Shown here: positions 5,965 through 24,045 of the stretch, piece after piece
How positions within the stretch are numbered: position 1 is the first letter of the stretch
Layout of the letters: each line of letters begins with the position of its first letter
Source: Saprospiraceae bacterium
GTDB taxonomy: Bacteria; Bacteroidota; Bacteroidia; Chitinophagales; Saprospiraceae
DNA length: 34,247 nucleotides
Direction of reading: 5' to 3'
Assembly (NCBI GenBank): GCA_020849825.1
Contig: JADZFP010000296.1
Location: forward strand, 1-34,247
Notes under the pieces: model-generated
Seen by the model: the letters and a program-made list of their open reading frames with translations, nothing else
What the model was told of the DNA's origin: nothing
Database searches by the model: none
Program-made: the position numbers and the translations under genes

Positions 5965-6003
5965 GACGCTCGGGAACTTTTTTTCAGATTTTTTAGAAAC
6001 CCC

Positions 6004-6036
6004 TTTGGAAAATCGAATCTCCTGTGCTTACCTTTG
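6004..6036 (+). promoter_or_regulatory. Candidate Bacteroidota sigma-A promoter for the ribosomal-protein cluster (TTTG-N21-TACCTTTG)
   Basis: TTTG at 6004-6007 and TACCTTTG at 6029-6036, about 83 nt upstream of the rpsJ ATG. Matches the published -33 TTTG / -7 TAnnTTTG architecture. Confidence 0.45.
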
Positions 6037-9162: not shown

Positions 9163-9429
9163 ATGCCGCGTTCGCTCAAAAAAGGCCCTTACGTACACCA
9201 CGCACTGACGGAAAAAGTCGCTAAGGCCAAACAAAGCAACAGAAAACAGGTGATCAAAACCTGGAGCCGCGCCTCCATGATCATCCCGGATATGGTCGGC
9301 GAAACCATCGCTGTCCACAACGGCAAAACATTCATCCCGGTGTTCGTCACCGAAAATATGGTTGGCCACAAACTCGGCGAGTTCGCGCCCACGCGCAACT
9401 TCCGCGGCCACGCCGGTAACAGAAAATAA
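9163..9429 (+). CDS. rpsS: 30S ribosomal protein S19
   Basis: 88 aa with [10 protein letters not shown]...[16 protein letters not shown]. Confidence 0.97.
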
Positions 9430-9573
9430 TGTGCTAATGTGCTAATGTGATAATGTGCTAACGTGGATAATGTGAAAATTTTTCACATCCTGCACTTGAG
9501 CAAATCATCAGCATATTACCTAATTGGCACATCAGCACACTCCTAATTAGCACATTAGCACATTAGCACATTT
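9427..9573. repeat. Octamer-repeat palindromic element #1 (TAATGTGC arms / GCACATTA arms), rpsS-rplV spacer
   Basis: The left arm has 3 GTGCTAA copies and the right arm has 3 TTAGCAC copies. The arms are reverse complements. Internal mini-hairpin GTGAAAATTTTTCAC at 9472-9486. Confidence 0.9.
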
Positions 9574-9994: not shown

Positions 9995-10897
9995 ATGGGT
10001 CAAAAAGCAAATCCGATTGGTAACCGCCTGGGCATTATCCGCGGTTGGGATTCTAACTGGTACGCCGACAAAGACTACGGTCTGAAAGTAGTAGAGGACG
10101 AAAAAATCCGCACCTACCTCCGCGCCCGTCGCCCGAAAACGGCCACCGCCGATCCCCGCGAACGCAACAAACCGATGCAAAACGGTATCAGCCGCATCGT
10201 GATCGAGCGTACCCTCAAACGCGTTACCGTCACCATCCATACCAGCCGCCCCGGTATTATCATCGGTAAAGGCGGTAAGGAGGTTGACCTTATCAAGGAA
10301 GAGCTCAAAGTGCTCACCGGCAAGGATGTCCAAATCAACATCTTTGAAATCCGCAAGCCCGAACTCGACGCCAACATCGTAGGCGAACAAATCGCCAAAC
10401 AAATCGAAGCCCGTATCAACTTCCGTCGCGCCATCAAAGGCGCCATCCAGGGCTCGATGCGCGCCGGCGCCGAAGGTATCAAGATCCGCGTAAGCGGTCG
10501 TCTCGGCGGCGCTGAAATGAGCCGTGTTGAAGAACACAAGGAAGGCCGTACGCCGCTCCATACGTTCCGTGCCGACATTGATTATGCACTTGCCGAAGCA
10601 CAAACGGTGTATGGCAAAATCGGTATCAAAGTTTGGCTCTTCAAAGGCGAAGTGCTCCAAAAACGCGAACTCACTCCTTTCGCAGCAGCCGAAGGCACCG
10701 ATCGTGGTGACCGCGGTGGCGATCGCGGCGGAGATCGTCGCGGCGGCGGTGAACGCCGTGGCGGTGGCGAACGCGGAGATCGTGGCGAACGCGGTGAACG
10801 CGGAGATCGTCGCGGTGGCGGCGGTGGTGATCGTCGCGGTGGCGGCGGCGGTGGAGATCGCCGCGGCGGCGGTGGCGGTGGCAATCGCCGGCGCTAA
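9995..10897 (+). CDS. rpsC: 30S ribosomal protein S3 with a roughly 70-aa C-terminal RGG/GDR repeat tail
   Basis: 300 aa. [16 protein letters not shown]-like [18 protein letters not shown] and RADIDYA motifs. Tail is [63 protein letters not shown]. Confidence 0.96.
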
Positions 10898-11432: not shown

Positions 11433-11476
11433 GCCCGATCGCCCTCATTCGCTCATTCGCACACCGCTCATTCAAT

Positions 11477-15717: not shown

Positions 15718-15802
15718 TTTTGTTGTTCGCTGCTGGTTGTTCGTTGCCTGCTCTTTGCACAACAAATAACCAACAACGGCCAACGCACAACGAACAACGA
15801 AC
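15718..15802. repeat. Imperfect palindromic spacer built from TTGTTCG / CGAACAA short repeats (rpsE-rpmD junction)
   Basis: The left half GTTGTTCGCTGCTGGTTGTTCGTTG is complementary to the right half CAACGCACAACGAACAACGAAC. For example, GGTTGTTCGTTG pairs with CAACGAACAAC. Confidence 0.7.
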
Positions 15803-19645: not shown

Positions 19646-19649
19646 TAAT

Positions 19650-19800
19650 TAATGTGCTAATGTGCTAATGAGATAATGTGCCAATTAAGAGAGCACTTAT
19701 CTGGTTGGTATTCTTAGCCGGTTCAAATAGCCATTAGCACATTAACTAATTAGCATATTATCTAATTAGCACATTGTCAAATTAGCACATTAGCACATTA
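19650..19800. repeat. Octamer-repeat palindromic element #2, rpsM-rpsK spacer
   Basis: 2 GTGCTAA copies on the left and 4 TTAGCAC copies on the right. The central core at 19691-19723 is shared with element #3. Confidence 0.9.
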
Positions 19801-19805
19801 ACAAT

Positions 19806-20198: not shown

Positions 20199-20200
20199 GG

Positions 20201-20390
20201 AATGCGCTAATTAGTTAATGTGCTAATGTGCTAATTAGATAATGTGCTAATTATGAGCGCTTATCAGGTTGGTATTCTTAGCCGGTTTAACTAATCTATT
20301 AGCACATCAATACATTAGCACATTGACTAATTAGCACATTAGCCCCATTACCGAATTAGCACATTAGCACATTATCAAATCAGCACATTA
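20201..20390. repeat. Octamer-repeat palindromic element #3, rpsK-rpsD spacer
   Basis: 3 GTGCTAA copies on the left and 5 TTAGCAC copies on the right. The core at 20255-20287 matches element #2 at 30 of 33 positions. Confidence 0.9.
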
Positions 20391-21011: not shown

Positions 21012-21164
21012 GCCTGATGATAGCGGAAAAGGTTGGCGCTCCCGGTGGGACGTCAACCATTTCCGCGTTTTTGCGTTTAAACCCGCCGCCCAAAACTAAA
21101 CGCGACAATCCCCGAATCTTCAATTGCTTTTTCCCACCTCACTCAATTCGGAGCAATCCATACC

Positions 21165-22163
21165 ATGAGTATTCTCAATTTCCAAAAGCCCGACAAAATC
21201 CTGCTCCAAAAAGCAACGGACTTTGAAGGCACTTTTGAATTCAAACCCCTCGAACCGGGCTTCGGCCAAACGGTTGGCAACTCTCTCCGTCGCGTACTCC
21301 TTTCCTCGCTTGAAGGCTTCGCCATCAGCGCTGTACGCATCGGCGGTGTCGACCACGAGTTCGCTACGATGCGTGGCGTCGTGGAAGACGTGGTAGACAT
21401 CGTGCTCAACCTCAAACAGGTTCGAATCAAACAACTTATCCAGGACGAAAAACTCCAGCAGGAGAAAATCTACCTGACCATCAGCGGTCGGGAAGAATTC
21501 CGTGCCGGAGATATCGAAGAATTCACCAACGTGTTCAAGGTGATGAACCCGGAACTCCTGCTTTGCCGCATGGAACCCTCCGTCAACCTCGAACTGGAAC
21601 TCACCATCACCAACGGCCGCGGCTACCAGCCCGCCGATGATATGGTGCCGAAAGACGCCGCTATCGGCGTTATCCCGATCGACGCGATCTACACGCCCAT
21701 CAAAAACGTGGCGTACAAAGTGGAAAATACTCGTGTCGGCCAGCGCACCGACTACGAAAAACTCACCATCGATGTGAAAACCGACGGCACCATCCACCCG
21801 GAAGATGCCATCCGCGAAGCAAGCCGTATCCTGATCCAGCACCTTATGCTGATCACCGACGACAACATCACTTTCGATACGCCGCAAAGCCGCGAGGAAA
21901 ATGTAGTGGACGAGCACATCCTCCACATGCGCAAACTGCTCAAAACCTCGCTCGAAGATCTGGACCTCAGCGTACGCGCCTACAACTGCCTCAAGGCAGC
22001 CAAAATCAATACGCTGGCCGAACTGGTCAAATACGACACCCACGAACTGCTCAAATTCCGCAACTTCGGCAAAAAGTCGCTCGTGGAAATCGAAGAACTC
22101 CTCCAGGAAAAAGGCCTCACTTTCGGCATGGACCTGGCGAAATACAAACTGGACGAAGAGTAA
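21165..22163 (+). CDS. rpoA: DNA-directed RNA polymerase subunit alpha
   Basis: 332 aa with PLEPGFGQTVGNSLRRVLLSSLEG. C-terminal domain has LDLSVRAYNCLKAAKINTLAELV. Confidence 0.97.
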   Translation: MSILNFQKPDKILLQKATDFEGTFEFKPLEPGFGQTVGNSLRRVLLSSLEGFAISAVRIGGVDHEFATMRGVVEDVVDIVLNLKQVRIKQLIQDEKLQQEKIYLTISGREEFRAGDIEEFTNVFKVMNPELLLCRMEPSVNLELELTITNGRGYQPADDMVPKDAAIGVIPIDAIYTPIKNVAYKVENTRVGQRTDYEKLTIDVKTDGTIHPEDAIREASRILIQHLMLITDDNITFDTPQSREENVVDEHILHMRKLLKTSLEDLDLSVRAYNCLKAAKINTLAELVKYDTHELLKFRNFGKKSLVEIEELLQEKGLTFGMDLAKYKLDEE

Positions 22164-22164
22164 G

Positions 22165-22316
22165 TTAATGTGCTAATTAGTTAATGTGCTAATGTGCTAA
22201 TGACAAGGTTGTGTGCTATTTTTTCGAAACATGAGAAAAGCACTCAGCGCCCCGGAAAAGTCCACATCCGCCCATTAGCACATTGGCATATTAACCAATT
22301 AGCACATTAACACACA
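22165..22316. repeat. Octamer-repeat palindromic element #4, rpoA-rplQ spacer
   Basis: 3 GTGCTAA copies on the left and 2 TTAGCAC copies on the right. It has its own core, including the hairpin GTGCTATTTTTTC...GAGAAAAGCAC. Confidence 0.85.
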
Positions 22317-22394
22317 TTTTTTAACAAGTGCAGTAACCGTCGAGCGTCTTCAAGGGCTTGCCCCGGTGCTGCCACCTAAACTTAGGTACATCTC

Positions 22395-23114
22395 ATGCGA
22401 CACGGAGATAAAGTAAACAACCTCGGACGCACCGCGTCCCACCGCCGCGCCCTGCTGGCCAACCTGGCAAACGCCCTCATCGAACACAAACGCATCAACA
22501 CCACCCTGGCCAAGGCCAAAGCCCTGCGCCGCTACGTGGAGCCTCTGGTGACCAAAGCCAAAGACAATACCACCCACTCCCGCCGCGTGGTATTCAGCTA
22601 CCTGCAGAACAAAGACGCCGTCAAGGAACTGTTCAGCACCGTTGCCGCCAAAATCGGCGACCGCCCGGGCGGTTACGTTCGCATCATCAAACTCGGCTTC
22701 CGCCGGGGCGACGGCGCCGAAGTAGCCATGATCGAGTTTGTGGATTTCAACGAAACCTACAACCCGAAAGCCGGTAAAGAAGCCACGAAGAAGAAAACCC
22801 GTCGCGGCAACAAAAAGCCCACGGAATCCAAAGTCAGCGCCAAAGTAACCGAAGCCAAAGCCGCCGCTGCCGCTGCGCCGGTCGTGGAGGAAGAAGTAGC
22901 CCCGGTCGTTGAAGAAACCGTGGCCGCTATCGAGGAAACGCCTGTTGTGGAAGAAACGGTTGCTGCTGTTGAAGAAACCGCACCCGTTGTAGAAGAAACC
23001 GTAGCCGCCGTGGAAGAAACGGTTGCTGCTGTTGAAGAAGCGCCCGCCGCCGAGCCCGAGGCCCCCGCTGCCGAAGAAACGACGGAAGAAGAAAAGAAAG
23101 ACGAAGAAGCCTGA
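22395..23114 (+). CDS. rplQ: 50S ribosomal protein L17 with a roughly 115-aa Lys-rich then acidic Ala/Val/Glu/Thr repeat tail
   Basis: 239 aa. [21 protein letters not shown] is the canonical start. The tail carries repeated [12 protein letters not shown] units. Confidence 0.95.
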
Positions 23115-23148: not shown

Positions 23149-23187
23149 AGAGCCGCTCCGAGTGTTCGGGGCGGCTCTTGTTGTTTG
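23149..23187 (+). terminator. Rho-independent terminator closing the ribosomal-protein cluster
   Basis: Stem AGAGCCGCTCCG / CGGGGCGGCTCT (13 bp including one G-U pair) with a 6-nt loop, then TTGTTGTTT. Confidence 0.75.
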
Positions 23188-23204
23188 GTGGACTGGAAAG
23201 GAGC

Positions 23205-23728
23205 GGGATGGGAACGCGGATGACGCGGATTTGGGCGGATGGACACGGATTTTTTACCCGCGCAGCGGTGGTGTTTTTGGACAGGATGAACAAGATTTAC
23301 AGGATCGGACAGGATTTTTTTAGGGAAAGAAGCAACACCCACCATGCCGGCGCAGCCGGCATTTATCCTGTTAATCTTGTTGATCCTGTCTAAAAAAACA
23401 GTTTGGGGTTGGACAGGATGAACAAGATTTACAGGATCTGACAGGATTTTTTTAGGAAAGAAGCAGCACCCGCCATGCCGGCGCAGCCGGCATTTATCCT
23501 GTTAATCTTGTTGATCCTGTCTAAAAAAACAGTTTGGGGTTGGACAGGATGAACAAGATTTACAGGATTGGACAGGATTTTTTTAGGAAAGAAGCAACAC
23601 CCGCCATGCCGGCGCAGCCGGCATCTATCCTGTTTATCGTGTTTATCCTGTCAAAAAAGCACCCGCGCAGCGGGTAAAAAAAATCCGTGTCCATCCGCCC
23701 CAATCCGCGTCATCCGCGTTCCCATCCC
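23205..23728. repeat. Outer inverted repeat (arms 23205-23261 and 23670-23728) enclosing a tandem hairpin array
   Basis: The reverse complement of the left arm equals the right arm except for one substitution and an A-run of 6 versus 8. A 13-nt direct repeat ACCCGCGCAGCGG lies at 23256-23268 and 23661-23673. Confidence 0.9.
23279..23652. repeat. Three tandem units of about 131 nt (starts 23279, 23411, 23542), each an internal hairpin with a GCCGGCGCAGCCGGC apex
   Basis: Units are near-identical on direct reading. The unit arms GGACAGGATGAACAAGATTTACAGGAT and ATCCTGTTAATCTTGTTGATCCTGTC are reverse complements with 2 mismatches. Confidence 0.9.
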
Positions 23729-23751
23729 CCCTACGTCCTCCGCAAGGGCAA

Positions 23752-23793
23752 TAAAAAAAACAGGGCACACATCAGAAACTGACGGCACCCTGT
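23752..23793 (-). terminator. Orphan minus-strand intrinsic terminator
   Basis: On the minus strand, ACAGGG...(TCAG-TTT-CTGA inner stem)...CCCTGT is followed by T9. No minus-strand CDS lies upstream of it. Confidence 0.45.
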
Positions 23794-23886
23794 ATAACCC
23801 CAAAAAACCAAATGAAAACAATCTTAAATATAACGCTCTTTTATCGAGCGGAAATTTGCTGTGTTGTGGTTCGTTTTTCAACGATA
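23752..23886 (-). ncRNA. Hypothetical small RNA of about 135 nt, bounded by a minus-strand TATCTTTG -7 box and the orphan terminator
   Basis: The minus-strand -7 box TATCTTTG sits at plus coordinates 23900-23893. An ATTG ending at 23920 lies 19 nt upstream. No ORF longer than 15 codons lies between promoter and terminator. No match to any RNA family I recognise. Confidence 0.2.
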
Positions 23887-24045
23887 ACGATACAAAGATA
23901 AGGCCGTTTTCTGACTCCGCAATAGTTGTTTAAAAAAATTTTTTCACTCCGTTAACGTACACGCGTAATCAGATTGTGGATAAACGGGAATAGTGACCTT
24001 TGCCGTATCTTCGTGATAAAGGTCGATAAAAATTCAGGGTTTCCC

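Follow-up and report, generated by a model that had tools for sequence, protein, structure and literature searches.

A tandem-repeat foldback between rpoA and rplQ in a Saprospiraceae bacterium and its replacement among close relatives

The stretch of DNA analysed here, referred to as the window, comprises the 34,247 nucleotides of contig JADZFP010000296.1 from a Saprospiraceae bacterium (assembly GCA_020849825.1). It is a ribosomal-protein cluster of Bacteroidota, in which rpoA, rplQ, rpsD, rpsK, rpsM, rpsS and rplV are confirmed by NCBIfam. A promoter motif of the canonical Bacteroidota type (TTTG ... TACCTTTG) is found at about 5990–6036, 5' of the first ribosomal-protein gene in the cluster. 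No other good TAnnTTTG accompanied by a −33-like element was seen close to where the operon begins. The rpoA reading frame occupies 21165–22163 on the forward strand, ending in a TAA stop codon at 22161–22163, and is followed on the same strand by rplQ at 22395–23114. The closest rpoA genes in the genome collection belong to Saprospiraceae MAGs and encode proteins of 92–93% amino-acid identity. The rpoA–rplQ spacer contains no TAnnTTTG promoter motif, while a consensus terminator scan identified a GC-rich, terminator-like hairpin 3' of rplQ. Together these suggest that rplQ is probably co-transcribed with rpoA through the element described below.

Several other features of the cluster may be recorded. 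The L17 protein encoded by rplQ has 239 residues, with a C-terminal extension encoded by 21/42-nt tandem repeats (22908–23039), and it scores below the cut-off for the NCBIfam ‘sunset domain variant’. GC-rich coding repeats of 24/27 nt also occur near the 3' end (10704–10890) of a 300-residue open reading frame at 9995–10897. The rpsD–rpoA spacer (21012–21164, 153 nt) is kept in all close relatives. It carries a strong hairpin, GCGGAAAAGGTTGGC...GCCAACCATTTCCGC, at 21023–21066, whose inner stem varies among relatives and which is followed by a T5 run at 21068–21072; hairpin and T5 resemble a terminator or attenuator ahead of rpoA.

Immediately after the rpoA stop codon lies a 148-nt quasi-palindrome (22164–22311), here called element 4. 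It consists of two 39-nt arms, 92% complementary to each other, separated by a 70-nt core. The 5' arm (22164–22202, forward strand) is a G/T-rich tandem array of the octamer TAATGTGC, and the 3' arm (22273–22311) is an A/C-rich array of the complement units, of the GCACATTA type. In both arms the TAATGTGC units are interleaved with TAATTAGT-type variants, which produces a higher-order period of 16 nt. Counted by hand, the arms differ from perfect pairing at one A·C and two G·U positions, and the stem includes a run of 23 consecutive pairs, two of them G·U. The RNA fold of the element has a predicted energy of −72.1 kcal/mol, compared to −30.1 ± 3.4 kcal/mol for shuffled sequences (z = −12.5; none of 200 shuffles was as good). 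In the minimum-energy fold, positions 22160–22161, and 22164 onward, pair with 22311–22315, so that the rpoA stop codon is located at the base of the long stem. The core (22203–22272), which is specific to this copy, has only a weak inner hairpin (22208–22248), and its fold is marginal (z = −2.0; 8 of 200 shuffles as good). An earlier note on this DNA, made from the letters alone, had placed a separate core hairpin, GTGCTATTTTTTC / GAGAAAAGCAC, at about 22194–22234. The hairpin is indeed present, although its position is 22213–22243 and it is only marginal.

Element 4 is one of four such elements in the window, as the earlier note had recognised. Allowing up to two mismatches, TAATGTGCTAAT occurs 37 times in the window against 1.5 expected, and these occurrences form four clusters, at 9427–9573, 19650–19800, 20200–20390 and 22166–22309. 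Element 1 (9427–9573) lies between rpsS and rplV, where the TAA stop codon of rpsS is the first TAA of the array. Element 2 (19649–19801) separates rpsM from rpsK, and element 3 (20201–20390) separates rpsK from rpsD; all are on the forward strand. Elements 2 and 3 have a 33-nt core in common, and they are the only pair with a homologous interior. The composite GCTAATTAGTTAATGTGC is common to elements 2, 3 and 4. The flanks of the four copies share only a TA or TAA that belongs to the repeat unit itself, and thus reveal no target-site duplication. Elements 1–3 span their spacers almost completely, with the stem starting 0–5 nt past the upstream stop codon and ending 4–9 nt before the next ATG. 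Element 4 shares the position directly after a stop codon but, as had been noticed before, stands apart from the next start codon, its end being 83 nt from the rplQ ATG (78 nt if counted from 22316).

Related arrangements, the first two made of other unit families, occur elsewhere in the window. In the rpsE–rpmD spacer (15718–15802) a foldback combines a G/T-rich 5' arm with a 3' arm of (ACAACGA)n that runs into the ATG, and at 11444–11473 a one-sided (CTCATTCG)n array stands immediately 5' of the next ATG. A nested palindrome is located 3' of rplQ (23186–23735); its outer arms consist of about 75 nt of GCGGAT-type units and enclose three tandem 131-nt hairpin units with arms of ACAGGAT / AACAAGATTT-type repeats. 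An open reading frame within it (23568–23933) has no match in Pfam or NCBIfam and is probably spurious.

The length of these elements is not fixed. Element 2 is constant at 160 nt in four related contigs, while the spacer holding element 3 exists in alleles of 174, 198 and 206 nt; the differences, 8 and 24 nt, amount to whole octamers. Arms are thus lengthened and shortened by complete units, the pattern expected of replication slippage. Element 4 itself is unchanged in contigs of 99.8% identity, in an assembly of 99.4% identity (L204) and in nine independent short-read contigs that carry L17. Independent short-read contigs (L205–L213 and L364–L369) terminate inside the arms of elements 3 and 4.

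At slightly greater distances the whole of element 4 is replaced. In L200, which is 97% identical in DNA over 8 kb, the flanks of the junction are identical (GAGTAAGTT on the left, TTTYTMAACMAAGYGCAG on the right), and between them a 72-nt hairpin of GAGGATTY / CGAATCCT octamers stands in place of element 4. L366, at 94.8% identity and with both its S4 protein and its element 3 unchanged, carries an array of AATGATG-type heptamers at the same junction. At 84–87% identity, L201 and L202 have a small TAATGTGC hairpin with a different core and L203 has a GATGAATGG hairpin. Two other relatives are L120, which contains a hairpin with 41-nt arms of GATTGGTT-type units, and L121, which contains GAATGAT hairpins. 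Six junction hairpins of relatives fold strongly (z = −3.7 to −10.7), and the cores of the orthologous elements are unrelated to that of element 4. Closely related strains thus hold different repeat families at the rpoA–rplQ junction. Their neighbours are conserved in all close genomes: the rpsD–rpoA spacer on one side and the last ~65 nt before rplQ on the other. More distant Saprospiraceae have short rpoA–rplQ spacers without such a hairpin. A TAATGTGC palindrome directly after rpoA is found again in two Chitinophagaceae (L147 and L174) and is absent from the Chitinophagaceae loci L149–L153, listed beside L147. Some hairpin occupies the junction in every close relative, which is the chief indication that the structure itself may be important; the hairpin as such could then be under selection and more functional than we assume here.

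The sequence between element 4 and rplQ behaves quite differently. It begins with a junction of ACACA, T6 and AACAAGT (22312–22329), in which the T6 run occupies 22317–22322. A T-rich run stands right before AAGYGCAGTAAC in all six of the closest relatives, irrespective of the sequence upstream; L200, L201, L203, L120 and L121 keep it, with different elements before it. In relatives the distance from hairpin to run ranges from 1 to 27 nt. The T6 run therefore belongs to the conserved flank of the rplQ leader and not to element 4.

Next to this flank, and inside the 78-nt stretch that follows element 4, lies a separate hairpin, GCAGT-AA-CCG ... CGG-TGCTGC (22330–22372, forward strand). A homologous motif is found 15–30 nt 5' of rplQ across three classes, Saprospiria, Chitinophagia and Sphingobacteriia (loci L147–L199), and is made up of a 5' stem, AATTCC, a variable insert, ACGGT and a 3' stem. 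In 40 loci from Chitinophagia and Sphingobacteriia the closing helix is 94.3% paired, and six of its seven pairs have changed on both sides. The covariation score of 0.82 was reached by none of 500 shuffles (0.30), and sliding the partner columns gives no more than 0.22. Neither this hairpin nor its related loci have a match in Rfam, and the published predicted L17 leader has been reported from Actinobacteria and Proteobacteria only (PMC7247131). The hairpin at 22330–22372 is therefore proposed as an unannotated candidate L17 leader and a conserved candidate regulator of rplQ. Judged by conservation and covariation, it is this hairpin, and not the palindrome, that behaves like a leader.

To what extent repeat-armed hairpins are general was assessed in the spacers of 83 Bacteroidota rpoA loci, 80 of which were picked by protein similarity alone from Saprospiria, Chitinophagia and Sphingobacteriia. 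Tandem arrays of at least 2.8 copies in these 80 loci most often repeat every 7 nt (69 arrays) or every 8 nt (29 arrays); no other period accounts for more than 14. An ungapped search for inverted repeats with arms of at least 14 nt yielded 47 hairpins in 388 plus-strand spacers of 40 nt or longer. The arms have a 7- or 8-nt periodicity in 29 of the 47. Most of the hairpins (31 of 47) start within 10 nt past the upstream stop codon, but few (7) reach to within 15 nt of the following ATG. A G/T-rich 5' arm is seen in 34 cases, an A/C-rich one in 11. The preferred units differ by lineage, AGATNTG in Sphingobacteriaceae being one example. On the sense strand, mismatches within spacer hairpins comprise 25 G·U and 22 A·C (p = 0.77) in addition to 53 transversions; the absence of any excess of G·U over A·C gives no sign of selection on the sense RNA.

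The orientation of TAATGTGC arrays is strongly biased. Among the matches listed, 132 exact arrays from 119 Bacteroidota loci have their TAAT end within 15 nt of an open reading frame boundary 51 times and their GTGC end only 3 times. For 32 of the 51 the boundary is a stop codon, which in 15 cases is the first TAA of the array, and for the other 19 it is a start codon, the sense strand then reading GCACATTA...ATG. Where such an array has an inverted partner among the matches listed, the partner is on the TAATGTGC...GCACATTA side in 37 cases and on the other side in 3. A palindrome is identical on both strands, so this polarity cannot separate causes acting on RNA from causes acting on DNA. On one simple selective reading, it is always an A/C-rich arm free of start codons that precedes the downstream gene, an arrangement which would suit Shine-Dalgarno-independent initiation.

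The distribution of the unit beyond the phylum was also considered. A scan for 2.5 copies of TAATGTGC found at least 119 stretches, almost all in Bacteroidota, and the same scan with the unrelated octamer GAGGATTC found at least 117, in many phyla. The idea that a phylum-wide occurrence makes TAATGTGC a special motif was rejected, the GAGGATTC array being equally widespread. As the collection comprises 185,579 genomes and there are about 4,100 classes of octamer, a wide occurrence would be expected provided that arrays of this kind are common. Viral contigs show a modest excess, with 23 stretches of TAATGTGC against 3 for a permuted control. The observation that arrays are never found in genes was likewise set aside as trivial, since three or more units contain stop codons in all frames of both strands. 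The GAGGATTC arrays (L240–L318) come from Acidobacteriota, Planctomycetota, Desulfobacterota, Verrucomicrobiota, Bacteroidota and others, with some MAGs carrying them on at least nine contigs, and in Saprospiraceae the type also forms foldbacks of the form (GAGGATTT)n, loop, (CGAATCCT)n. In a rumen MAG of Bacteroidales (L005, 2364–2399), 36 nt are identical to the 5' arm of element 4, with the TAATTAGT variant at the same position; this stretch stands directly 5' of a start codon on the other strand and could reflect coincidence or shared descent. An 18-mer from the end of rpoA had only four chance matches in JGI metagenomes, and no record of the exact RpoA protein was found. A literature search with 16-mers of the element returned no match, and one for octamer or heptamer repeats in Bacteroidetes returned only general surveys of simple sequence repeats and the TAACTGA paper discussed below.

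What, then, might element 4 do in the transcript? The earlier note had suggested a terminator or attenuator, or a partner of the S4-mediated feedback known from the corresponding operon of E. coli. Either role, that of an intrinsic terminator or attenuator dedicated to the rpoA–rplQ junction or that of an operator to which S4 or some other ribosomal protein binds, would agree with a very stable stem that has T6 within 1–5 nt and that lies between cistrons whose products are needed in different amounts. An element which is not kept even at 97% identity, and is replaced again at 94.8%, cannot be a conserved regulatory operator. At the orthologous position relatives have different hairpins, and their T-rich run is present regardless of the hairpin, so that the combination of hairpin and U-run seen here looks incidental. 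The stem base is A/U-rich and the 70-nt interior is unlike that of canonical terminators; the terminator scan that called the hairpin after rplQ did not call element 4. With respect to ribosomal-protein binding, no conserved secondary structure with compensatory changes, as is expected of a leader, was found for the palindrome among relatives. The whole window has no match in Rfam at the gathering score, including to the ribosomal-protein leaders held there; with E values up to 10 the region gives only sub-threshold plant miRNA hairpins, and ten related loci give nothing relevant. The known S4 leaders of Bacteroidia and Flavobacteria, moreover, are located 5' of rpsD (PMC7247131). Neither suggestion is supported, and we consider a dedicated terminator or operator very improbable. 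Hardly better is the prospect of translational coupling, in which the G/U-rich 5' arm would mask a Shine-Dalgarno-independent enhancer in the A/C-rich 3' arm until a ribosome that reaches the stop codon at the foot of the stem, and terminates there, opens the helix and frees the initiation region further on. Elements 1–3, which reach from stop codon to ATG, have the geometry for this. The A/C-rich arm is usually the 3' one (34 against 11), and one-sided GCACATTA-type arrays stand directly 5' of start codons in 19 of 51 boundary-abutting arrays among the matches listed. Arrays of the heptamer TAACTGA just 5' of start codons have been proposed as post-transcriptional sites (PMC4679880). Against this stands the small share of large hairpins that end close to an ATG (7 of 47), and for element 4 the geometry fails, a conserved leader being interposed in the 83 nt before rplQ. 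A further idea, that overlapping AUG-UGC-UAA mini-ORFs in the UAAUGUGC units support repeated termination and reinitiation, was dropped as other unit families do not have this property.

The origin of the elements leaves two further alternatives to be weighed. In the simpler, the foldbacks are neutral by-products of local events: slippage lengthens an array in place, intramolecular template switching copies one arm from the other, nothing moves and expression is unaffected. Length changes in whole units, cores specific to their locus, symmetric mismatch types and the lack of a transposase or target duplication all agree with this. So does the wide occurrence of an unrelated octamer array in many phyla, which makes that of TAATGTGC nothing special, and long simple sequence repeats of 5–11 nt, most commonly heptamers, have been attributed to slippage in many prokaryotes (Mrazek 2007, in the summary given in PMC4679880). 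Other observations are hard to obtain locally. Within one genome several loci share the same unit family and the same higher-order arrangement of units. A different spacer, rpmJ–rpsM, of L120, a genome only ~78% identical, contains an arm that matches the 35-nt arm of L366 exactly. Hairpins of unrelated units are swapped whole between identical flanks at 97% identity, and slippage alone would not be expected to yield the strict TAATGTGC...GCACATTA polarity. A purely local origin is thus unlikely, although of the alternatives it deserves the most serious consideration. The other possibility is that the elements act as DNA, as an array at which a nucleoid, replication or recombination protein binds or as a site resembling the attC of integrons. 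The polarity is symmetric relative to gene direction, mismatch types do not tell the strands apart and alleles are exchanged at one junction, all of which would be compatible with such a role. No single binding protein would account for units which are wholly different between families and lineages, however, and no candidate protein was identified; we regard this as the least probable of the explanations. The attC comparison in particular was rejected: attC core sites read GTTRRRY and RYYYAAC, and the ends of the element, GTTAATG and CATTAAC, misfit them when compared by eye.

Copying between sites accounts for more of these features. The higher-order unit arrangements shared by copies within one genome show that these copies are related by copying and did not originate independently. 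In the genome of L200, two further contigs carry the GAGGATTY family in the same architecture. Shared cores and arms, taken with the replacement of alleles at one junction, point to copying or exchange between sites. Classical transposition finds no support as the route. The flanks give no target duplication; the core shared by elements 2 and 3 was found in the genome collection only at the corresponding two sites of one relative; no common flanking target was seen at the TAATGTGC loci examined among the matches listed; and no transposase lies within 2.5 kb of the 119 TAATGTGC loci among those matches. When the 503 open reading frames within 2.5 kb of arrays were clustered, only ABC-transporter ATPases were recurrent, and the one frame flanked by opposed arrays encodes an aminotransferase.

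In architecture the elements recall several known kinds of repeat without coinciding with any. Eukaryotic Foldback (FB) transposons have long inverted arms made of tandem short units, whose length varies between copies; they are of kilobase scale, and some copies contain coding sequence. The likeness is one of arm structure only and implies no relationship. The REP, BIME and REPIN sequences of Proteobacteria are closer in size and position. REPs are abundant extragenic palindromes, located mostly just 3' of genes and transcribed as hairpins, with stems of 5–13 bp, loops of 2–20 nt and a GTAG or CGTC tag (PMC3733652). In E. coli they are reported to combine the properties of a leaky terminator and an mRNA stabiliser, varying between strains (bioRxiv 10.64898/2026.03.23.713779). 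Like them, the present elements are post-gene palindromes at strain-variable positions, and a REPIN likewise consists of two inverted units in one long hairpin. Unlike them, element 4 has 39-nt tandem-octamer arms, 70 nt between these and neither tag at or near its ends, and many unrelated unit families coexist. Neither the window nor the 2.5 kb around the arrays listed showed a RAYT transposase.

Long simple sequence repeats (LSSRs) offer a second comparison. TAACTGA heptamer arrays occur in Beggiatoaceae, Cyanobacteria and some Bacteroidetes, and a Beggiatoa genome contains 169 direct sets as opposed to one indirect repeat (PMC4679880). As in the present case, the arrays are intergenic, with 7–8-nt tandem units in variable copy number, often abut start codons and have the same unit in distant lineages with no known carrier. 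Element 4 has non-coding period-8 arrays above chance in both arms; variation in copy number is seen in the alleles of element 3, whereas element 4 is invariant in contigs at least 99.4% identical. LSSRs have been described as direct repeats, in contrast to the inverted arrays found here, which form a foldback of fixed polarity around a unique core. MITEs of bacteria, such as Correia/NEMIS, RUP and the one of P. gingivalis that contains an internal minisatellite (PMC4596501), are similarly small, non-coding and multicopy, have terminal inverted repeats, as element 4 does, and are able to occupy operon spacers and alter mRNA processing. What sets MITEs apart is that they are flanked by target-site duplications, have interiors homologous to one another and share their ends with a parent IS; no such feature was found here. 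With ribosomal-protein leaders, namely the predicted L17 leader and the S4 leaders of Bacteroidia and Flavobacteria (PMC7247131), the palindrome has in common that it would form RNA structure in the region of the alpha operon. Leaders show conservation and covariation, and the palindrome shows neither.

Element 4 is best regarded as belonging to a class of repeat-armed foldbacks that evolves fast, has been little described and mixes properties of LSSRs with those of REPs and MITEs. The reading we favour, and hold to be reasonably probable, is that of a miniature non-coding foldback repeat, changed by slippage of its units and copied between spacers, with a probably REP-like effect on RNA. Each copy consists of two inverted arms of tandem 7–8-nt units, the G/T-rich one first and the A/C-rich one second, around a core of its own. 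The copies would have moved or been exchanged between spacers by a copy-paste or recombination route. An insert that folds on itself would keep the upstream stop codon beside the downstream leader or start codon, and this may allow it to persist in tightly packed ribosomal-protein operons. The transcript of the present locus would then contain a stem of about 39 bp beginning at the rpoA stop codon. Such a stem may act as a barrier to 3' exonucleases, protecting the rpoA-proximal mRNA, and it may also be a site for a double-stranded RNase or for leaky termination, lowering read-through into rplQ in this strain. The synthesis of L17 would be set by the separate conserved hairpin at 22330–22372. 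Most likely, the effect of element 4 on RNA would be REP-like at most, modest and specific to the strain.

A bolder version of this reading can be put forward only tentatively, and we think it considerably less likely to be right than wrong. The elements may represent an undescribed class of mobile foldback repeats in Bacteroidota, and perhaps other phyla, with tandem 7–8-nt arms and several families per genome, each served by a putative trans-acting enzyme. They would be targeted to sites just after stop codons, even in core ribosomal-protein operons, and their exchange between strains of one species would amount to a strain-level dial on operon stoichiometry.

There are practical consequences in that the elements break short-read assemblies inside core operons. 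There is also a risk that they are taken for regulatory RNAs and that the actual conserved candidate, the hairpin before rplQ, is overlooked. Few parts of a bacterial genome are as constrained as ribosomal-protein operons, yet their spacers here hold large hairpins that differ between strains at 95–97% identity. If these hairpins are mobile, they would constitute a repeat class without a known enzyme, combining features of simple sequence repeats with those of REPs and MITEs in a phylum from which elements of these kinds have been little described. If they alter mRNA stability or read-through, the balance between RNA polymerase alpha and ribosomal proteins would vary from strain to strain on their account.
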